Assembly (NCBI GenBank): GCA_964016885.1
Contig: OZ024751.1
Location: forward strand, 43,400,001-43,464,000
DNA from: Eledone cirrhosa
Taxonomy: Eukaryota
Length of the DNA stretch: 64,000 nucleotides
Reading direction: 5' to 3'
Under the pieces are notes generated by a model. It saw only the letters and a list, made by a program, of their open reading frames with translations, had not been told where the DNA came from and did no database searches. A program made the translations under genes and the position numbers. Below, one piece after another: positions 42,960-64,000 of the stretch (its first letter is position 1; each line of letters starts with the position of its first letter).

Positions 42960-42960
<1 letters not shown>
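39261..42960 (+). mobile_element. Full-length R4/Dong-clade non-LTR retrotransposon inserted in (TAA)n
   Basis: Single long ORF with ~230-bp 5' UTR and ~75-bp 3' UTR, flanked by (TAA)n at 39192-39260 and 42961-43013. Dong-type R4 elements are known to target TAA repeats. Confidence 0.9.
39494..42886 (+). CDS. Reverse transcriptase with C-terminal CCHC zinc knuckle and restriction-like endonuclease (RLE), 1130 aa
   Basis: RT motifs KSPGPDG, NYRPITCL, WIDYRKAFDMVPH, GIFQGDSLSPLLF, LFMDDLKL, YKYLG; CRICGEREETVAHIVSEC; RHD; RPDLVVVD...IVDVACP...KE.EK..RY (PD-(D/E)xK RLE). No stops. Confidence 0.95.
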   Translation: METRTSCDRLSPNRCPLAQQQEPDCQPNTADVGGRRRRKGARTNWTKELNRTVMQCYLKSNPKERGYRRRMHNIWNEIGLFKLDEQKLAGQARVIRTNGWISELELEELSRENGLEMAGVVCQTSEPAGNEGEEVLRTEEPPEADNDLNTEINNTWNRDTATEEMNADGLGQDSVDILNLVVDELNNDSGRPMNLRFVDRKKLKETTAKVNKVIPYLEARSLHQCNNILKATANTVRKLLGIKARGNNRQERAEPWWKKRLSGQIGEMRNDIGKLESLLNGTLKNIGTKNRLEIKYKTRSKKLNIIIEELKQRIVAKSAKIRRYENRVSQYKHNRMFDNNQKMLFGQLEGKERGNDLIPGAEQAKTFWRGIWEQDVRHNAQAGWIETVQREIGEQAQQQTDLSITVETLKGQAKKLTNWKSPGPDGVQGYWIKHLTSLHPKLTAMFNDCLVSGEVPEWLTKGTTGLIMKDRIKGNDVTNYRPITCLPVMWKLLTSIVSEEIYHHLHTNNLLPDEQKGCRKKSRGTKDQLLIDKMVMGNCRRRHTDLAMGWIDYRKAFDMVPHSWITKSLEIFRVADNIRQLLGRSMGSWETELTSTGVSLGSLKIKRGIFQGDSLSPLLFVLALMPLTIMLRKVRAGYKLGRGELTINHLLFMDDLKLFGKSEKELDVLVDTVRIFSSDICMQFGIGKCGVIVMRRGRLSRSNGIQIPTGEMIKEIDSEEGYKYLGVLEADGIKNKKMKELLRTEYIRRVRSVLKSHLNSRNAISAVNSRAVSIIRYSAGILRWNVAEQKEMDRKTRKLLTIYNMFHKRSDVDRLYLRRSEGGRGLISIEDCVQMEKNNLYKYVTYSKEPMLRAVLKEGTVGQGIPKEEITSRRKSSLKGKSLHSTFFEKTEFRDPQTWNWLRRGDLKKATEGMLMAAQEQALKTKWLKHHIYKEEASPLCRICGEREETVAHIVSECKHLAQTHYKGWRHDVMGRVIHWHLCKVNNLPHSEKWYEHRPEAVMENSQVKVLWDFRIETDKKLEHNRPDLVVVDKEKRSCLIVDVACPFDTRVQEKEREKINRYQDLKWEVKRIWNCHEVKVIPIVIGALGTISKGFQGWLKKIGPFTLFGTLQKACLLGTARTLRYVLNI

Positions 42961-43013
<53 letters not shown>

Positions 43014-43016
<3 letters not shown>

Positions 43017-43610
43017 TGATTTCTTTATTGGCCACAAGGGCCGACATCTAGGGGACAAACAAAGACAGGGACCGTAGGGGTTTACAATAAGGTCGAGTAA
43101 AAGTACACAATGGCAAGACCAATTCAACAATGAAGATATAAAAATATAAAATAAATTATGCATAAATATAACAAAATAAATCCTCACTATGGACTCGGCC
43201 GATAGCCGGATCCGTTCCACACGGGACAGTAGCTGTTCGACATAACTCCACAAGTCAGTAATGCACGGACATTGGACAAGTGCGTGCACAACGGTTTCGT
43301 CGCTCTGTGCGCATCTTGGGCAGGTCGGCTGACAGCAATTCCGTGCCTGTAGAGTTTTCCCGAACCGGCAGTGCACCCCGGAAGCATTGCCAAGCGAGGG
43401 ATTTCTGGAAATTGTCCATCGTCCCCGGCTCGAAAGTCCAGACTGGTACAGACTGGTCAGTTCGACTTCGTCGAGGCCCAAAGCTTCTCCGAGTGCGTCA
43501 TCGCACTTGCCCACTACTAATCCTCTATAGAACTCGAGAGTGGAAGTTCCACTGATCGCATTGCCCGCTTGGTAGAGGGCAGTGAGTGTCTGGCAACATT
43601 CCAGGTGCCA
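43014..43610 (-). mobile_element. 3' fragment of L1/Tx1-like LINE (zinc-knuckle region + 3' UTR ending in AATAAA and (ATT)n)
   Basis: Minus-strand translation CPRCAQSDETVVHALVQCPCITDLWSYVEQLL (CxxC-E-H-C knuckle typical of the L1-clade ORF2 C-terminus); 3' end cccttgtggccaataaagaaatcatc(att)n. Confidence 0.7.
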
Positions 43611-43617
43611 GAATAAT

Positions 43618-43905
43618 AATTAACCGATACCAGGATTTAAAGTGGGAGTTAAAAAGGATTTGGATCTGCCATGAAATCAAGGTCGTCCCAATTGTCATAG
43701 GAGCATAGGTTCTATCTCAAAGAGTTTCCAAAGATGGTTAAAGAAGATTAGTCCAGCCCCGCTTTTTGGAACACTTCAAAAGGCATGCCTGGGAACAGCA
43801 AGAACCCTCCGATACGTCCTGAATGTCTGAGGCTGCAGGTAGCGGCTTGATATTCATTTCAACAAACTTTCCAGTTAAATAACATCAATGACTGAGACTC
43901 AAAGA
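43618..43905 (+). mobile_element. 5'-truncated diverged copy of the Dong/R4 element 3' end
   Basis: Similar to 42669-42960 (attaaccgataccagga...gaaccctccgatacgtcctgaat...gactgaga); flanked by short (TAA)n. Confidence 0.9.
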
Positions 43906-44241
43906 ACAATAATAATAATAATAATTCTTTCTTTATTGACCACAAGGCTTGACATAAAGTATAATACTAAGGACAGCACAGGACGGTACATGACGGTACA
44001 AATGGACATTTCTGCGTGTAAAAAAAACAATGATAATAATGAGAGAAGAAAGAATCAGTGTTGCATCATATGTATACATACTTAATCACATATTACATAT
44101 GTTTCACTGTCGATCAACTCGATAAACGATCGATTATGATTCTGGAATCAAAAGGTCCTCAGATATGTGCTTTCACATGTAAACACACGTCCAAATACAT
44201 CCAATGCTAATCTTGAAATACCACCTTATATATATACATAC

Positions 44242-44315
<74 letters not shown>

Positions 44316-44318
<3 letters not shown>

Positions 44319-45203
44319 ATACATTAACAGAGAAAGCCTTAAGCAATACTCCGACCGGCTTCCGTCTCACTCAACAAACATTAGGATATACCTTAGTATA
44401 ATCCCAATTATACGTTTGGGGTGCTAACTATACGTATTTTGCGGATGGCCAGTTGTATTATTTTATATGAGCCATAATTAAAATACATCTCTCTTTCCAA
44501 ACGATCGTTTCATTATAAGTTTTCTACAAATTGGGAAAATAATGTCCAGGTTATGTAGAAGCCTACACATAGTCCGAAGGAATATATGTAGGTGGGCACT
44601 TATAAATCATCAGTGGATGCCCGACAAATATCGATATAAAAACAACCCTACCGATATTAATGTTCAGCGATGGTACCCCTCCGTGCTAGAATGACCGCCA
44701 AATTTGAAATTCCAGCAGTATCACAATGAGAAATCTCACACTGCCATCAAGCGGAAAGGGGGGGGGGGTTATCGCAAAACGTAAAAGAATACAAGAATAA
44801 AATAATATGCACGCGGGTCAATTAATTTTTTCAATAATTTTAACCATGCGTGAAGAACTCAATTGGATATAAAAAAATAAATATGTATGTATTATTTATA
44901 CACGCATATAGGTATTTTCTTAGGCTAAAAACAGAGATAAGATACCGGAAGAACAATCAATATTTCATACAAAGAATAAATACGGAAAGTCATACCTAAA
45001 AAGTATTTGGAAATATTCATCCCTGGCCAAATCAAGAGTATAATATTTAATACATTAACAGAGAAAACTTTAAGCAATACTCCGACCGGCTTACGTCTCA
45101 CTCAACAAACATTAGGATATACCTTAGTATAATCCCAATTATACGTTTGGGGTGCTAACTATACGTATTTTGCGGATGGCCAGTTGTATTATTTTATATG
45201 AGA
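44316..45203 (-). mobile_element. ~731-bp non-coding hammerhead-bearing repeat present as ~1.2 tandem units; diverged homolog at 35880-36778
   Basis: acattaacagagaaa...ttttatatgag at 44321 recurs at 45052. Flanked by (TA)n. Clear colinear similarity to 35881-36630. Confidence 0.75.
44496..44617 (-). ncRNA. Type I hammerhead fold with branched stem II (homolog of 36064)
   Basis: Minus strand: tcca-CTGATGA-tttataagt...acttataat-GAAA-cgatcg-TT-tgga. Confidence 0.75.
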
Positions 45204-45633
45204 CATATATATATATGAGGGGATTTTTTACAACCACTTTCTTAAACACCCTTATCTTGCTATCAATCTTCACCCTTTTCTGTGTGTATATATGTATGTG
45301 TATATGTGTGTGTGTGTGTATGCTTTAATTCCTTTAAATCTTCATCGACACTCCTTCACTCCCACACTCATTTACACCCCACTTCACAACCCAGACACAC
45401 CCAAATCTCTCTTATATATATAGTCACACATCACAACACAACCTGATCTCAGTTTGACAATCGCCACTGATGAATGCGAAAAATTTCTGCAGGAAATTTA
45501 ACCAGGAATTTTTAAAATTCTTCCCACCGAAGTTAACAAAGAACTTACTGGATCTACCAACTCATAATATTATAATATAAAATTAAATCAAATTATTTAG
45601 AACTACAAGTGAAGTCATTCTTTTCCTTTTTAT

Positions 45634-50845: not shown

Positions 50846-53800
50846 AACCACACAGGACCACATAGGACCACATAGGACCACATAGGACCACATAGGACCA
50901 CATAGGACCACACAGGACCATACAGGACCACATAGGACCACACAGGACCACACAGGACCACACAGGACCACATAGGACCACATAGGACCACATAGGACCA
51001 CATAGGACCACACAGGACCACACAGGACCACATAGGAGCACATAGGAGCACATAGGAACACACAGGACCACACAGGACCACATAGGACCACATAGGACCA
51101 CACAGGACCACATAGGACCACATAGGATCACACAGGACCACATAGGACCACATAGGACCACATAGGACCACATAGGACCACACAGGACCACATAGGACCA
51201 CATAGGACCACATAGGACCACACAGGACCACACAGGACCACACAGGACCACATAGGACCACATAGGACCACATAGGACCACACAGGACCACACAGGACCA
51301 CATAGGACCACACAGGACCACATAGGACCACATAGGACCACACAGGCCCACATAGGCCCACACAGGACCACATAGGACCACACAGGACCACATAGGACCA
51401 CATAGGACCACATAGGACCACACAGGACCACACAGGACCACACAGGACCACATAGGACCACATAGGACCACATAGGACCACACAGGACCACACAGGACCA
51501 CACAGGACCACATAGGACCACATAGGACCACATACGACCACATAGGATCACATAGGACCACATAGGACCACATAGGACCACATAGGACCACACAGGACCA
51601 CACAGGATCAGATAGGACCGAATAGGACCACATAGGACCACACAGGACCACACAGGATCAGATAGTACCGAATAGGACCACATAGGACCACACAGGACCA
51701 CATAGGACCACACAGGACCACACAGGACCACATAGGACTACACAGGACCACACAGGACCACATAGGACCACATAGGACCACATAGGACCACATAGGACCA
51801 CATAGGACCACACAGGACCACATAGGACCACATAGGACCACACAGGACCACATAGGACCACGTAGGACCACACAGGACTACACAGGATCAGATAGGACCG
51901 AATAGGACCACATAGGACCACACAGGACCACACAGGATCAGATAGTACCGAATAGGACCACATAGGACCACACAGGACCACATAGGACTACACAGGACCA
52001 CACAGGAACACATAGGACCACATAGGACCACATAGGACCACATAGGACCACACAGAACCACATAGGACCACATAGGACCACACACGACCACACAGGACCA
52101 CATAGGACTACACAGGACCACACAGGAACACATAGGACCACATAGGACCACATAGGACCACATAGGACCACACAGGACCACATAGGACCACATAGGACCA
52201 CACAGGACCACATAGGACCACGTAGGATCACACAGGACTACACAGGATCAGATAGTACCGAATAGGACCACATAGGACCACACAGGACCACACAGGATCA
52301 GATAGTACCGAATAGGACCACATAGGACCACACAGGACCACATAGGACCACACAGGACCACACAGGACCACATAGGACCACATAGGACCACATAGGACCA
52401 CACAGGACCACATAGGACCACACAGGACCACACAGGACCACATAGGACCACACAGGACCACATAGGACCACATAGGACTACACAGGACCACACAGGAACA
52501 CATAGGACCACATAGGACCACACAGGACCACATAGGACCACATAGGACCACATATGACCACACAGGACCACATAGGACCACATAGGACCACATAGGACCA
52601 CATAGGACCACATAGGACCACATAGGACCACACAGGACCACACAGGACCACACAGGACCACATAGGACCACATAGGACCACATAGGACCACATAGGACCA
52701 CACAGGACCACATAGGACCACATAGGACCACATAGGACCACACAGGACCACACAGGACCACACAGGACCACATAGGACCACATAGGACCACATAGGACCA
52801 CACAGGACCACACAGGACCACATAGGACCACACAGGACCACATAGGACCACATAGGACCACACAGGACCACATAGGCCCACACAGGACCATATAGGACCA
52901 CATAGGACCACACAGGACCACATAGGACCACACAGGACCACACAGGACCACACAGGACCACATAGGACCACATATGACCACATAGGATTACATAGGACCA
53001 CACAGGACCACATAGGACCACATAGGACCACATACGACCACATAGGATCACATAGGACCACATAGGACCACATAGGACCACATAGGACCACACAGGACCA
53101 CACAGGACCACATAGGACCACATAGGACCACACAGGACCACACAGGATCAGATAGGACCGAATAGGACCACATAGGACCACACAGGACCACACAGGATCA
53201 GATAGTACCGAATAGGACCACATAGGACCACACAGGACCACATAGGACCACACAGGACCACACAGGACCACATAGGACTACACAGGACCACACAGGACCA
53301 CATAGGACCACATAGGACCACATAGGACCACATAGGACCACATAGGACCACACAGGACCACATAGGACCACATAGGACCACACAGGACCACATAGGACCA
53401 CGTAGGACCACACAGGACTACACAGGATCAGATAGGACCGAATAGGACCACATAGGACCACACAGGACCACACAGGATCAGATAGTACCGAATAGGACCA
53501 CATAGGACCACACAGGACCACATAGGACTACACAGGACCACACAGGAACACATAGGACCACATAGGACCACATAGGACCACATAGGACCACACAGGACCA
53601 CATAGGACCACATAGGACCACACAGGACCACACAGGACCACATAGGACTACACAGGACCACACAGGAACACATAGGACCACATAGGACCACATAGGACCA
53701 CATAGGACCACACAGGACCACATAGGACCACATAGGACCACACAGGACCACATAGGACCACGTAGGACCACACAGGACTACACAGGATCAGATAGGACCG

Positions 53801-56800
53801 AATAGGACCACATAGGACCACACAGGACCACACAGGATCAGATAGTACCGAATAGGACCACATAGGACCACACAGGACCACATAGGACCACACAGGACCA
53901 CACAGGACCACATAGGACCACACAGGACGACATAGGACCACATAGGACTACACAGGACCACACAGGAACACATAGGACCACATAGGACCACACAGGACCA
54001 CATAGGACCACATAGGACCACATATGACCACACAGGACCACATAGGACCACATAGGACCACATAGGACCACATAGGACCACATAGGACCATACAGGACCA
54101 CATAGGACCACATAGGACCACATAGGACCATATAGGACCATATAGGACCACACAGGACCACATAGGACCACATAGGACCACATAGGACTACATAGGACCA
54201 CATAGGACCACATAGGACCACATAGGACCACACAGGACCACACAGGACCACATAGGATCACATAGTACCACACAGGGCCACACAGGACCACACAGGACCA
54301 CACAGGACCACATAGGACCACATAGGACCACACAGGACCACATAGGACCACATAGGACCACACAGGACCACACAGGACCACATAGGACCACATAGGACCA
54401 CACAGGACCACACAGGACCACATAGGACCACATAGGACCACATAGGACCACATAGGACCACACAGGACCACACAGGACCACATAGGACCACATAGGACCA
54501 CACAGGACCACACAGGATCACATAGGACCAGATAAGACCACATAGGACCACATAGGACCACATAGGACCACACAGGACCACACAGGACCACACAGGACCA
54601 CATAGGACCAGATAGGACCACATAGGACCACACAGGACCACATAGGACCACATAGGACCACATAGGACCACACAGGACCACATAGGACCACATAGGACCA
54701 CATAGGACCACACAGGACCACACAGGATCACATAGGACCAGATAAGACCACATAGGACCACACAGGACCACACAGGACCACACAGGACCACATAGGAGCA
54801 CATAGGACCACATAGGACCACACAGGACCACACAGGACCACACAGGATCACATAGGACCAGATAAGACCACATAGGACCACATAGGACCACACAGGACCA
54901 CACAGGACCACATAGGAGCACATAGGACCACATAGGACCACACAGGACCACACAGGACCACACAGGACCACATAGGACCAGATAGGACCACATAGGACCA
55001 CACAGGACCACATAGGACCACATAGGACCACACAGGACCACATAGGACCACATAGGACCACACAGGACCACACAGGACCACACAGGACCACATAGGACCA
55101 CACAGGACCACATAGGACCACATAGGACAACACAGGACCACACAGGACCACACAGGACCACACAGGACCACACAGGACCACATAGGACCACATAGGACCA
55201 CACAGGACCACATAGGACCACATAGGACCACATAGGACCACACAGGACCACACAGGACCACAGAGGACCACATAGGACCACACAGGACCACACAGGACCT
55301 CATAGGACCACATAGGACCACATAGGACCACATAGGACCACACAGGATCACACAGGACCACACAGGACCACATAGGACCACATAGGACCGCATAGGACCA
55401 CACAGGACCACACAGGACCACATAGGACCACATAGGACCACACAGGACCACATAGGACCACATAGGACCACACAGGACCACACAGGACCACATAGGACCA
55501 CATAGGACTACATAGGACCACATAGGAGCACACAGGACCACACAGGACCACATAAGACCACATAGGACCACATAGAACCACATAGGACCACACAGGACCA
55601 CATAGTACCACATAGGATCACACAGGACCACATAGGACCACATAAGACCACATAGGACCACATAGGACCACATAGGACCACACAGGACCACATAGGACCA
55701 CATAGGACCACATAGGACCACATAGGACCACATAGGACCACACAGGACCACACAGGACCACATAGGACCACATAGGACCACATAGGACCACACGGGACCA
55801 TACAGGACCACATAGGACCACATAGGACCACATAGGACCACATAGGATTACATAGGACCACACAGGTCCACATAGGACCACATAGGACCACATAGGACCA
55901 CATAGGATCACATAGGACCACATAGGACCACATAGGACCACATAGGACCACACAGAACCACACAGGACCACATAGGACCACATAGGACCACACAGGACCA
56001 CACAGGATCAGATAGGACCGAATAGGACCACATAGGACCACACAGGATCAGATAGGACCGAATAGGACCACGTAGGACCACATAGGACCACATAGGACCA
56101 CACAGGACCACACGGGACCACATAGGACCACACAGGACCACACAGGACCACATAGGACCACATAGGACCACATAGGACCACATAGGACCACACAGGACAA
56201 CATAGGACCACATAGGACCACGCAGGACCACATAGGACCACATAGGACCACATAGGACCACATAGGACCATACAGGACCACATCGGACTACATAGGGCCA
56301 TATAGGACCACATAGGACCATATAGGACCACACAGGACCACATAGGACCACATAGGACCACATAGGACCACATAGGACCACATAGGACCACACAGGACCA
56401 CACAGGACCACATAGGATCACATAGGACCACACAGGGGCACACAGGACCACATAGGACCACATAGGACCACATAGGACCACACAGGACCACACAGGACCA
56501 CATAGGACCACACAGGACCACACAGGACCACATAGGACCACACAGGACCACACAGGACCACATAGGACCACATAGGACCACACAGGACCACATAGGACCA
56601 CATAGGACCACATAAGAACACACAGGACCACACAGGACCACATAGGACAACATAGGACCAGACAGGACCACACAGGACCGCATAGGACCACATAGGACCA
56701 CACAGGACCACACAGGACCACATAGGACCACATAGGACCACACAGAACCACACAGGACCACATAGGACCACATAGGACCACACAGGACCACATAGGACCA

Positions 56801-59800
56801 CATAGGACCACATAGGACCACACAGGACCACATAGGACCACATAGGACAACACAGGACCACACAGGACCACACAGGACCACACAGGACTACACAGGACCA
56901 CATAGGACCACATAGGACCACACAGGACCACATAGGACCACATAGAACCACATAGGACCACACAGGACCGCACAGGACCACATAGGACCACATAGGACCA
57001 CACAGGACCACACAGGACCTCATAGGACCACATAGGACCACATAGGACCACATAGGACCACACAGGATCACACAGGACCACACAGGACCACATAGGACCA
57101 CATAGGACCACATAGGACCACATAGGACCACATAGGACCACATAGGACCACATAGGACCAGATAGGACCATATAGGACCACACAGGACCACATAGGACCA
57201 CATAGGACCACATAGGACTACATAGGACCACATAGGACCACATAGGACCACATAGGACCACACAGGACCACACAGGACCACATAGGATCACATAGTACCA
57301 CACAGGGCCACACAGGACCACACAGGACCACACAGGACCACATAGGACCACATAGGACCACACAGGACCACATAGGACCACATAGGACCACACAGGACCA
57401 CACAGGACCACATAGGACCACATAGGACCACACAGGACCACACAGGACCACATAGGACCACATAGGACCACATAGGACCACATAGGACCACACAGGACCA
57501 CACAGGACCACATAGGACCACATAGGACCACACAGGACCACACAGGATCACATAGGACCAGATAAGACCACATAGGACCACATAGGACCACATAGGACCA
57601 CACAGGACCACACAGGACCACACAGGACCACATAGGACCAGATAGGACCACATAGGACCACACAGGACCACATAGGACCACATAGGACCACATAGGACCA
57701 CACAGGACCACATAGGACCACATAGGACCACATAGGACCACACAGGACCACACAGGATCACATAGGACCAGATAAGACCACATAGGACCACACAGGACCA
57801 CACAGGACCACACAGGACCACATAGGAGCACATAGGACCACATAGGACCACACAGGACCACACAGGACCACACAGGATCACATAGGACCAGATAAGACCA
57901 CATAGGACCACATAGGACCACACAGGACCACACAGGACCACATAGGAGCACATAGGACCACACAGGATCACATAGGACCAGATAAGACCACATAGGACCA
58001 CACAGGACCACACAGGACCACACAGGACCACATAGGACCACACAGGACCACATAGGACCACATAGGACCACACAGGACCACACAGGACCTCATAGGACCA
58101 CATAGGACCACATAGGACCACATAGGACCACACAGGATCACACAGGACCACACAGGACCACATAGGACCACATAGGACCACATAGGACCACATAGGACCA
58201 CATAGGACCACATAGGACCACATAGGACCAGATAGGACCATATAGGACCACACAGGACCACATAGGACCACATAGGACCACATAGGACTACATAGGACCA
58301 CATAGGACCACATAGGACCACATAGGACCACACAGGACCACACAGGACCACATAGGATCACATAGTACCACACAGGGCCACACAGGACCACACAGGACCA
58401 CACAGGACCACATAGGACCACATAGGACCACACAGGACCACATAGGACCACATAGGACCACACAGGACCACACAGGACCACATAGGACCACATAGGACCA
58501 CACAGGACCACACAGGACCACATAGGACCACATAGGACCACATAGGACCACATAGGACCACACAGGACCACACAGGACCACATAGGACCACATAGGACCA
58601 CACAGGACCACACAGGATCACATAGGACCAGATAAGACCACATAGGACCACATAGGACCACATAGGACCACACAGGACCACACAGGACCACACAGGACCA
58701 CATAGGACCAGATAGGACCACATAGGACCACACAGGACCACATAGGACCACATAGGACCACATAGGACCACACAGGACCACATAGGACCACATAGGACCA
58801 CATAGGACCACACAGGACCACACAGGATCACATAGGACCAGATAAGACCACATAGGACCACACAGGACCACACAGGACCACACAGGACCACATAGGAGCA
58901 CATAGGACCACATAGGACCACACAGGACCACACAGGACCACACAGGATCACATAGGACCAGATAAGACCACATAGGACCACATAGGACCACACAGGACCA
59001 CACAGGACCACATAGGAGCACATAGGACCACATAGGACCACACAGGACCACACAGGACCACACAGGACCACATAGGACCAGATAGGACCACATAGGACCA
59101 CACAGGACCACATAGGACCACATAGGACCACACAGGACCACATAGGACCACATAGGACCACACAGGACCACACAGGACCACACAGGACCACATAGGACCA
59201 CACAGGACCACATAGGACCACATAGGACAACACAGGACCACACAGGACCACACAGGACCACACAGGACCACACAGGACCACATAGGACCACATAGGACCA
59301 CACAGGACCACATAGGACCACATAGGACCACATAGGACCACACAGGACCACACAGGACCACAGAGGACCACATAGGACCACACAGGACCACACAGGACCT
59401 CATAGGACCACATAGGACCACATAGGACCACATAGGACCACACAGGATCACACAGGACCACACAGGACCACATAGGACCACATAGGACCGCATAGGACCA
59501 CACAGGACCACACAGGACCACATAGGACCACATAGGACCACACAGGACCACATAGGACCACATAGGACCACACAGGACCACACAGGACCACATAGGACCA
59601 CATAGGACTACATAGGACCACATAGGAGCACACAGGACCACACAGGACCACATAAGACCACATAGGACCACATAGAACCACATAGGACCACACAGGACCA
59701 CATAGTACCACATAGGATCACACAGGACCACATAGGACCACATAAGACCACATAGGACCACATAGGACCACATAGGACCACACAGGACCACATAGGACCA

Positions 59801-62800
59801 CATAGGACCACATAGGACCACATAGGACCACATAGGACCACACAGGACCACACAGGACCACATAGGACCACATAGGACCACATAGGACCACACGGGACCA
59901 CACAGGACCACATAGGACCACATAGGACCACATAGGACCACATAGGATTACATAGGACCACACAGGACCACATAGGACCACATAGGACCACATAGGACCA
60001 CATAGGATCACATAGGACCACATAGGACCACATAGGACCACATAGGACCACACAGAACCACACAGGACCACATAGGACCACATAGGACCACACAGGACCA
60101 CACAGGATCAGATAGGACCGAATAGGACCACATAGGACCACACAGGACCACACACGATCAGATAGGACCGAATAGGACCACGTAGGACCACATAGGACCA
60201 CATAGGACCACACAGGACCACACGGGACCACATAGGACCACACAGGACCACACAGGACCACATAGGACCACATAGGACCACATAGGACCACATAGGACCA
60301 CACAGGACAACATAGGACCACATAGGACCACGCAGGACCACATAGGACCACATAGGACCACATAGGACCACATAGGACCATACAGGACCACATCGGACTA
60401 CATAGGGCCATATAGGACCACATAGGACCATATAGGACCACACAGGACCACATAGGACCACATAGGACCACATAGGACCACATAGGACCACATAGGACCA
60501 CACAGGACCACACAGGACCACATAGGATCACATAGGACCACACAGGGGCACACAGGACCACATAGGACCACATAGGACCACATAGGACCACACAGGACCA
60601 CACAGGACCACATAGGACCACACAGGACCACACAGGACCACATAGGACCACACAGGACCACACAGGACCACATAGGACCACATAGGACCACACAGGACCA
60701 CATAGGACCACATAGGACCACATAAGACCACACAGGACCACACAGGACCACATAGGACAACATAGGACCAGACAGGACCACACAGGACCGCATAGGACCA
60801 CATAGGACCACACAGGACCACACAGGACCACATAGGACCACATAGGACCACACAGAACCACACAGGACCACATAGGACCACATAGGACCACACAGGACCA
60901 CATAGGACCACATAGGACCACATAGGACCACACAGGACCACATAGGACCACATAGGACAACACAGGACCACACAGGACCACACAGGACCACACAGGACTA
61001 CACAGGACCACATAGGACCACATAGGACCACACAGGACCACATAGGACCACATAGAACCACATAGGACCACACAGGACCGCACAGGACCACATAGGACCA
61101 CATAGGACCACACAGGACCACACAGGACCTCATAGGACCACATAGGACCACATAGGACCACATAGGACCACACAGGATCACACAGGACCACACAGGACCA
61201 CATAGGACCACATAGGACCACATAGGACCACATAGGACCACATAGGACCACATAGGACCACATAGGACCAGATAGGACCACATAGGACCACACAGGACCA
61301 CATCGGACCACACAGGACCACATAGGACCACATAGGACCACATAGGACCACACAGGACCACATCGGACCACACAGGACCACATAGGACCACATAGGACCA
61401 CACAGGACCACACAGGACCACATAGGACCACATAGGACCACATAGGACCACACAGGACCACACAGGACCACATAGGACCACAGAGGACCACATAGGACCA
61501 CACAGGACTACACAGGACCACATAGGACCACATAGGACCATACAGGACCACATAGGACCACAAAGGACCACACAGGACGACATAGGACCACATAGGACCA
61601 CATAGGACCACACAGGACTACACAAGACCACATAGGACCACATAGGACCACATAGGACTACATAGGACCACACAGGACCACACAGGACCACATAGGACAC
61701 ATAACACCACATAGGACCACACAGGACTACACAGGACCACATAGGAACACATAGGACCACACAGGACCACACAGGACCACACAGGAGCACATAGGACCAC
61801 ATAGGACCACATAGGACCACACAGGACCACACAGGACCACATAGGACCACATAGGACCACTTAGGACCACATAGGACCACACAGGACCACACAGGACCAC
61901 ATACGACCACATAGGACCAAATAGGACCACATAGGACCACATAGGACCACATAGGACCACACAGGACCACACAGGACCACATAGGACCACATAGGACCAC
62001 ATAGGACCACATAGGACCACACGGGACCACACAGGACCACACAGGACCATACAGGACCACATAGGACCACATAGGACCACACAGGACCACACAGGACCAC
62101 ATAGGACCACATAGGACCACACAGGACCACATAGGACCACATAGGACCACATAGGCCCACATAGGACCACATAGGACCACATAGGACGACATAGGACCAC
62201 ATAGGACCACATAGGACCACACAGGACCACATAGGACCACACAGGACCACATAGGCCCACACAGGACCACATAGGACCACATAGGACCACATAGGACCAC
62301 ATAGGACCACATAGGACCACACGGTACCACATAGGACCACATAGGATCACACAGGACCACATAGGACCACATAGGACCACATAGGACCACATAGGACCAC
62401 ATAGGACCACATAGGACCACACAGGACCACATAGGACCACATAGGACCACATAGGACCACACAGGACCACACAGGACCACACAGGACCACATAGGACCAC
62501 ATAGGACCACATAGGACCACACAGGACCACACAGGACCACATAGGACCACATAGGACCACATATGACCACACAGGACCACACAGGACCACACAGGACCAC
62601 ATAGGACCACATAGGACCACACAGGACCACATACGACCACATAGGATCACATAGGACCACATAGGACCACATAGGACCACATAGGACCACACAGGACCAC
62701 ACAGGACCACATAGGACCACATAGGACCACACAGGACCACACAGGATCAGATAGGACCGAATAGGACCACATAGGACCACACAGGACCACATAGGACCAC

Positions 62801-64000
62801 ACAGGACCACATACGACCACATAGAATCACATAGGACCACATAGGACCACATAGGACCACATAGGACCACACAGGACCACACAGGACCACATAGGACCAC
62901 ATAGGACCACACAGGACCACACAGGATCAGATAGGACCGAATAGGACCACATAGGACCACACAGGACCACATAGGACCACACAGGACCACACAGGACCAC
63001 ATAGGACTACACAGGACCACACAGGACCACATAGGACCACATAGGACCACATAGGACCACATATGACCACACAGGACCACATAGGACCACATAGGACCAC
63101 ATAGGACCACATAGGACCACATAGGACCACACAGGACCACATAGGACTACATAGGACCACGTAGGACCACATAGGACCACATAGGACCACATAGGACCAC
63201 ATAGGACCATACAGGACCACATAGGACCACATAGGACCACATAGGACCATATAGGACCATATAGGACCACACAGGACCACATAGGACCACATAGGACCAC
63301 ATAGGACCACATAGGACCACATAGGACCACATAGGACCACATAGGACCACACAGGACCACACAGGACCACATAGGATCACATAGGACCACACAGGGCCAC
63401 ACAGGACCACACAGGACGATACAGGACCACATAGGACCACATAGGACCACACAGGACCACATAGGACCACATAGGACCACACAGGACCACACAGGACCAC
63501 ATAGGACCACATATGACCACACAGGACCACACAGGACCACATAGGACCACATAGGACCACATAGGACCACATAGGACCACACAGGACCACACAGGACCAC
63601 ATAGGACCACATAGGACCACACAGGACCACACAGGATCACATAGGACCAGATAAGACCACATAGGACCACATAGGACCACATAGGACCACACAGGACCAC
63701 ACAGGACCACACAGGACCACATAGGACCAGATAGGACCACATAGGACCACACAGGACCACATCGGACCACATAGGACCACATAGGACCACATAGGACCAC
63801 ACAGGACCACACAGGACCACATAGGACCACACAGGACCACATAGGACCACATAGGACAATACAGGACCACACAGGACCACACAGGACCACACAGGACCAC
63901 ACAGGACCACATAGGACCACATAGGACCACACAGGACCACATAGGACCACATAGGATAACACAGGACCACACAGGACCACACAGGACCACATAGGACCAC
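50846..64000. repeat. 10-bp satellite (GGACCACAYA)n, >13 kb, running off the window
   Basis: Continuous cataggacca/cacaggacca units; all 50.8-64 kb ORFs derive from it. Confidence 0.98.

Follow-up and report, generated by a model that had tools for sequence, protein, structure and literature searches.

A dispersed non-coding hammerhead repeat of Eledone cirrhosa, probably a non-LTR retrozyme mobilised by Penelope-like elements

A window of 64,000 nt from the genome of Eledone cirrhosa (contig OZ024751.1, positions 43,400,001 to 43,464,000) contains two copies of a dispersed non-coding repeat that carries a predicted hammerhead ribozyme. With a probability of roughly three in four, this repeat is a non-autonomous retroelement (a non-LTR retrozyme) that is mobilised in trans by a Penelope-like element (PLE) and whose RNA is likely self-cleaving. 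Its mobilisation as a non-autonomous element by PLEs is the part of this reading that is held with high confidence. Judged by its sequence, the element would be classed as a non-LTR retrozyme and appears to work like a PLE-mobilised non-autonomous element. It is a retrozyme with PLE-type integration anatomy across thousands of copies. Non-LTR retrozymes as a class, their derivation from PLEs, and their range of sizes have already been published (PMC7229834; bioRxiv 10.64898/2026.07.22.740005); all comparisons with published systems refer to parts of the cited papers. Two features appear to be new, namely a stem II that branches into two hairpins and a footprint of truncated copy ends at the cleavage site. 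Literature searches on PLEs and retrozymes, at the level of listings and of passages from PMC10085705, gave no account of either feature; similar ribozymes may be present in supplements.

The window unit of subfamily A is located on the minus strand at 44316-45046 (731 nt), and its RNA 3' end is fixed at 44316. The head of the unit is repeated after 45046 with an identity of 153/156 to 45202, or 157/161 (97.5%) to 45207, where the last bases merge into (TA)n. The first-pass annotation, which was made from the sequence alone, had described a 731-bp unit followed by a partial repeat of its own head, flanked by (TA)n and devoid of ORFs, and this description holds. Frames of the window unit reach at most 70 aa from stop to stop and 50 aa from ATG, and the longest stop-to-stop frames across the A, B, and C units are 59-70 aa. 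(TA)n tracts are present on both sides of 44316-45207. The window copy has one ribozyme. The features of this locus are as follows.

44226-44315, no strand: (TA)n target microsatellite at the fixed end, read from the window sequence
44316-44499, minus strand: conserved 3' domain of 184 nt, from the cleavage site to the fixed end, with pair compensation
44496-44617, minus strand: type I hammerhead, located by motif and covariation (fold z = -3.05)
44499-44500, minus strand: predicted self-cleavage site after GUU by hammerhead numbering; copy ends pile just below it
44594-44622, minus strand: possible pseudoknot GGGC/GCCC, 44622-44619 with 44597-44594
44689-44719, minus strand: block of 31 nt ending in TCATTC, identical between A and B but not conserved in C
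45047-45207, minus strand: second copy, 5'-truncated, unit positions 1-161, which stops 23-28 nt before the next cleavage site
45208-45217, no strand: short (TA)n at the truncated end, read from the window sequence

The minus-strand hammerhead that had been proposed at 44496-44617 is confirmed, and its core, stems, and cleavage site have been placed. Stem I consists of 4 bp (44617-44614 with 44499-44496). The core consists of CUGAUGA (44613-44607) and GAAA (44511-44508). Stem II begins with a U.U pair that is followed by 8 bp (44605-44598 with 44520-44513), and it then branches into hairpin IIa (44592-44562) and hairpin IIb (44560-44522), so that about 77 nt are enclosed. Stem III consists of 2 bp closed by a palindromic loop (ACGAUCGU). 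The cleavage triplet is GUU in the window copy and GUC or GUA in sister subfamilies. The canonical type I contact is made between loop 1 and loop 2, whereas here loop II is replaced by the junction, and a 4-bp pseudoknot is conserved without covariation. This GGGC/GCCC pairing, which possibly links the stem I side to the stem II junction, is kept in 94.4% of cells with zero compensatory change.

Structural covariation among copies, a check that had been proposed with the first annotation, was found. In 36 distinct ribozyme copies from A, B, and C loci, 96% of the cells pair, and 8/33 pairs in stems I, II, IIa, IIb, and III compensate across subfamilies compared with 1-2 in slid controls; the 36 sequences are not independent and the covariation represents a handful of subfamily-level events. 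Alignment A3, which gave 17 compensating pairs, was set aside because it was fitted to the model and contained junk rows. An intact catalytic core is present in 87 pattern-selected copies from 76/90 loci. For the monomer, the catalytic fold lies above the free minimum by 5.7-6.4 kcal/mol, which, like the GUU triplet and the U.U opening of stem II, weighs against the preferred reading. When two stem III segments are folded together, they pair at -12.4 kcal/mol; dimer-dependent hammerheads would be expected to behave in this way (PMC4209133). The 184-nt 3' domain shows compensatory changes in 9/49 predicted pairs among 12 subfamily representatives, and its single-sequence fold is no better than that of shuffles (z = -1.10). 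This domain is likely the region in which reverse transcriptase (RT) recognises the RNA and initiates.

A search of Rfam gave no match in the window at the gathering score, and at E<=5 the region 44200-45300 gave low-complexity chance hits only and no hammerhead family. The branched-stem-II hammerhead thus escapes both Rfam and short-loop descriptors, and similar families may therefore hide in other genomes. No tRNA gene was found within the window either, and with Rfam giving no match there is no sign of a tRNA-derived SINE head.

The second window copy belongs to subfamily B and shows 76.6% identity to the window A unit. Its features are as follows.

35880-36778, minus strand: subfamily B copy between (TA)n tracts, 899 nt out of a 996-nt unit
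36064-36188, minus strand: B-copy hammerhead with CUGACGA and stem III ACAAUUGU, cut between 36069 and 36068

The changes that had been claimed to covary in this homolog (CUGACGA, CAAUUG, and the altered hairpins) were all seen. The first-pass description is corrected in that the copy is shorter than one full unit of 996 nt; it also has an internal duplication of about 255 nt. The neighbour of the B copy at 35640-35845 is an AT-rich element of about 200 bp that contains a long inverted repeat and is bounded by (TA)n tracts. Similar sequence was also observed beside several other loci (L015, L106, and L148), and this is probably another small mobile element.

The host assembly is 3.0 Gb and rich in microsatellites. 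Exact matches to the head patterns number 656 for A (33 nt), 166 for B, and 804 for C, and a 20-mer common to all subfamilies has 6,937 exact matches in the genome; reversed-pattern controls gave 0 matches. Unit lengths across the superfamily are about 708-996 nt (A 731, B 996, and C 708). Subfamily C, which was found by chance beside a PLE, is about 73% like A across the first 315 nt, and 30 superfamily loci sampled by position include further subfamilies. The superfamily 20-mer has no match in viral contigs. Four sequence runs, all of them contigs whose library type is unspecified, display no RNA ends; one of the four comes from a second organism, and it spans the head and ribozyme region.

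A head-to-tail array of B units that extends for at least 60 kb was observed at G000:C2:312269511-312330090 (L408-L410). Its periods of 746 and 997 nt are mixed, the ribozyme core is intact in most of the units sampled, and 48 of the first 100 B matches listed lie inside it. The array is a candidate master locus. Its existence is what would be expected if the repeat were a DNA-level satellite that spreads by recombination or by rolling-circle DNA amplification. However, most copies are dispersed, shorter than one unit, and polarised to a fixed end, and they keep a strand-specific RNA structure under compensation. The satellite explanation is therefore very improbable; it is largely refuted for the dispersed copies and may account for growth of the array only.

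The copies were sampled as the first-listed copies with an exact head on C1-C3 of the assembly. For A, 91 heads were read, from which six second tandem copies and one unanchored copy were removed to leave 84. Unit position 1 is the start of every one of the 84 anchored first copies, and an AT-alternating (TA)n flank lies beside this fixed end in 72/84. Their far ends are spread from unit position 36 to 1058. Read as RNA, the copies share a 3' end located at (TA)n, 184 nt after the cut, and their 5' ends are truncated to different extents; copies of B and C exhibit the same pattern. The six tandem-flagged A heads continue into an upstream unit. The optional PLE tail of 30-40 bp is absent in A, where 83/88 heads match for 5 nt or less beyond the end, and this absence counts against the preferred reading. 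Head-to-tail dimers to multimers and also inverted partners were found, and at least two complete ribozymes stand head-to-tail at L003, L021, and L154 and in the B array. The family had been described as tandemly permuted. Mapping of starts and ends does not sustain this description, because all anchored copies share one fixed end. The reading of the element as retrozyme-like, reverse-transcribed, and non-coding is supported.

Long copies and the sequences beside them also bear on the improbable explanation that the unit is a solo pseudo-LTR or 3' end derived from a coding PLE, the full-length copies of which lie outside the sample. The copies read are a few hundred of about 7,000, mostly with 1.5-kb flanks, and among Xenopus retrozyme families, 24/57 match known elements that are nearly all PLE ends (bioRxiv 10.64898/2026.07.22.740005). 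Against this, the long copies run head-to-tail into their own unit rather than into an ORF. None of the 30 superfamily loci sampled by position has a PLE ORF joined to the element, and the RT plus GIY-YIG ORF of an autonomous EN+ PLE was not found in the element. An autonomous element sharing the 3' domain was not found among 360 element-bearing loci, 53 of which have an RT or EN hit in the flank, or among 20 PLE 3' regions, where the sole exception is sites at which a copy of the element itself was inserted; this negative result counts against the preferred reading of a PLE-mobilised element. A refutation named in advance, that the unit is no more than a terminal repeat belonging to a coding Penelope element, is not borne out at any locus examined. 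One apparent link, a coding PLE ending in the element head at L106, was rejected: other top copies of this PLE family start without the head, so L106 represents two adjacent insertions. Copies abutting the 3' regions of different PLE families at L249 and L039 were seen once each and are read as insertions. For the LINE that lies between the two window copies (39461-42886), no sequence link to the element was seen.

Coding PLEs are abundant in this genome. All 150 GIY-YIG candidates scored are above the Pfam cut-off, and Neptune-like ORFs have both RVT_1 and GIY-YIG. A second PLE group has no Pfam hit, and we call it Hydra-like on the basis of its motifs. Several PLEs with RT and GIY-YIG have their own hammerhead about 100-190 nt before a 3' end at (TA)n. 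At L396 (about 350-560, minus strand) and L397, the 3' end of a coding Hydra-like PLE was observed with the variant hammerhead core UUGAUAA, an insert of about 60 nt in stem II, a tail of about 105 nt, and then (TA)n; its ribozyme is possibly a second extended-stem-II hammerhead. The 3' regions of Neptune-like PLEs at L091, L092, and L097 have variant hammerhead-like cores, and CCAAT and GGCGCGAAA-type motifs lie upstream of them. These motifs presumably resemble cell-cycle promoter elements.

The truncated ends of the copies are concentrated at the ribozyme. Across 187 copies, 35 end within 25 nt below the cleavage site compared with 7.8 expected under a hazard model with AT-microhomology covariates. 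The 25-nt interval was chosen on family A, in which 19 of 84 copies end there (2.8 expected), and the prediction for B and C was written down before measurement. The counts are 7 compared with 1.6 expected in B (n=38, P=0.0016) and 9 compared with 3.4 in C (n=65, P=0.008). The three scoring schemes place 30-36 ends in the interval. By position, 19/84 A copies end at unit 161-184, where 184 is the first base after the cut, and 0 end at 185-199. The extra copy in the window had been noted to begin 25-30 nt downstream of the cleavage site, and it is one case of this family-wide signal. The first base after the cut is joined directly to (TA)n at L191, L197, and L381, the first two of which come from copies chosen for a length of at least 160 nt, and stricter scoring reduces such exact ends from 3 to 1. 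The pile is mostly 5-20 nt short of the cut and not on it.

This pile probably reflects cleavage in vivo, and it suggests that self-cleaved RNA is a template of retrotransposition in vivo. A different, unlikely explanation is that the element is a non-autonomous PLE derivative whose ribozyme is idle in vivo, and that the pile is formed by stalling of RT at RNA structure and by joining at AT microhomology. The modal ends do lie at AT-like positions 9-11 nt before the site: no B end is nearer than 11 nt and 4/7 are at one AT-like position, and 5/9 C ends are at -9. However, the excess persists after the AT covariates (rate ratio 4.05), certain copies end exactly at the cut, and subfamilies that are about 73% alike have kept the core and the stems, with compensatory changes. 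In addition, the stronger helices lie past the cut, starting at a distance of 14 nt, and few ends fall there (3 compared with 5.7 expected just above the site in the 187 copies). Published results that fit an idle ribozyme are an anole PLE that used unprocessed RNA and gave no reads ending at the hammerhead site (PMC11167929) and Xenopus retrozymes, 8/9 of which showed no cleavage in vitro (bioRxiv 10.64898/2026.07.22.740005).

A coding Neptune-like family, which was used as a control, has no pile at its own ribozyme, and this also fits an idle ribozyme. In this family, 39/68 anchored copies end 62-74 nt upstream of the ribozyme site with a sharp edge that is likely the transcription start site. 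Only 2 ends lie within 25 nt of the ribozyme site; the expectation of 5.0 is too high because it is inflated by the family's own upstream pile, and the local background is about 1. The retrozyme thus has a pile at its own ribozyme and the Neptune-like PLE does not. Taken together, both piles suggest that in this genome the 5' ends of RNAs are marked by piles of truncated copies. The control family (L094; G000:C6:60239000-60248900; loci L441-L510) has 3,441 genome matches, and many of its copies were observed to run into an inverted fold-back segment.

A second pile, at unit 323-370, was considered as the mark of a promoter; its significance is confined to A and is post hoc (P=0.47 in B and P=0.08 in C). 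Copy ends lie 7-54 nt downstream of the 44689-44719 block in 15/84 A copies, and this block is a candidate internal promoter or start region. It contains TTCAAATTTGGCGG, which we take to resemble cell-cycle promoter elements.

A tentative alternative, which we place clearly below even, is the classical retrozyme cycle: the RNA would be cut twice to release a 731-nt monomer, the monomer would be ligated into a circle, and the element would spread mainly through rolling reverse transcription of that circle. Circles have been demonstrated for coral, mussel, and axolotl retrozymes (PMC7229834), and circular folding of the unit gives z = -3.5 (40 shuffles). Adjacent B copies differ by 1.88 per 100 bp in dispersed tandems and by 4.16 in the array (19 and 9 pairs; random 4.52); the values for adjacent compared with random copies are 3.52 and 4.56 in A and 2.04 and 3.16 in C. 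Among 221 copies that span the cleavage site, a change of subfamily at that point was seen in none. The similarity between neighbouring copies and the lack of switches fit one unit read twice, and they also fit young homogeneous tandem donors. Greater-than-unit length had been offered as a sign of a circle, but only 8/84 A copies exceed one unit, an array could supply linear multimers, and partial tandems belong to the anatomy of PLEs (PMC8557442). A seamless circle would yield neither an end pile at the cut nor ends near the second site. By our own tally, 6/24 copies longer than one unit end from -25 to +3 of that site, which fits partly cleaved linear multimers. That circles supply a substantial share of the template is a possibility to which we give slightly less than an even chance.

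Under the preferred reading of a PLE-mobilised, partly self-cleaving RNA, long tandem donors, which are rare, would be transcribed, and the weak-stem-III ribozyme would cut some sites only, probably as a dimer. The 184-nt 3' domain would be the binding site of the PLE protein, whose GIY-YIG domain would nick (TA)n, and target-primed reverse transcription would begin at the fixed internal position. Where the RNA is cut at the nearest ribozyme, RT would run off within 184 nt and form the pile. Where the RNA is uncut, multimeric, or re-ligated into a circle, read-through would give the longer and greater-than-unit copies. In vitro, the anole Poseidon PAc exhibits an internal RT start downstream of its hammerhead and AT-rich nicking (PMC11167929). 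The element is similar to PAc in its fixed RT start past the hammerhead and its AT-rich targets. The two differ in that uncut RNA is the dominant substrate of PAc, with no ends at the ribozyme site, whereas genomic copies of the element pile there (PMC11167929). A wider proposal, which we consider evenly balanced, is that germline cleavage is recorded in DNA, that the 5'-hydroxyl products are templates for PLEs in addition to uncut or circular RNA, and that the undescribed branched and possibly pseudoknotted stem II keeps this ribozyme active in contrast to the minimal ribozyme of the helper PLE, which leaves no trace. If this is true, truncation maps would be a sequence-only read-out of the PLE and retrozyme ribozymes that cut in vivo. 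The footprint at the cleavage site is statistical and can be tested directly.

The element is similar to metazoan non-LTR retrozymes in that it is non-coding, low in GC, and found as monomers to long arrays, with a type I hammerhead per unit and co-occurring PLEs. In the axolotl HHR_Amex2, helix III is likewise 2 bp long and closed by a tetraloop, and helix II has a U.U at its base. The unit had been thought unusually large. This does not stand, because A (731) and C (708) fall within a reported range of 51-972 bp (bioRxiv 10.64898/2026.07.22.740005) and B (996) falls within "150 to >1000 nt" (PMC7229834); all three exceed the 170-400 nt of the retrozymes tested by northern analysis (PMC7229834). 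As far as the available parts of those accounts go, metazoan retrozymes have a short loop in place of the two hairpins and about 77 nt of stem II, and they differ from the element in its mostly 5'-truncated copies, fixed (TA)n end, and conserved 3' domain.

Similarity to EN+ PLEs of the Neptune and Hydra clades extends to pseudo-LTR partial tandems, inverted partners, 5' truncation, and (TA)n targeting (PMC8557442), and to a 3'-proximal hammerhead with a short helix I, a long helix II, and a palindromic helix III (PMC8557442; PMC4209133). Unlike these PLEs as they are described there, the element has no ORF and a much larger ribozyme, and its subfamily A has no 30-40-bp tail; the cleavage-site footprint is present in the element and missing in the coding Neptune-like control family. 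Chlamys elements such as MRC1 are likewise non-autonomous PLE derivatives with pseudo-LTRs and head-to-tail copies (PMC8557442). They have 3' ends in common with known autonomous families, and most Chlamys elements lack canonical hammerheads (PMC8557442), whereas no such partner was found for the element among the loci sampled.

Other repeats were observed in the window. An uninterrupted LINE ORF of 1141 aa with (AAT)n flanks is located on the plus strand at 39461-42886, and it has RVT_1 (E=4.8e-23), zf-RVT, and a C-terminal restriction-like motif. It resembles the R4/Dong clade. A fragment of another LINE type with zinc-knuckle-like RT-associated residues adjoins it on the minus strand at 42810-43619. 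A 10-bp satellite of the ACA(C/T)AGGACC type was seen at 51200-52600, and the skew in composition suggests that it extends to the window end (about 51200-64000). A tandem repeat of 111 bp is located at 4413-5969 with 14 copies and 97% matches.
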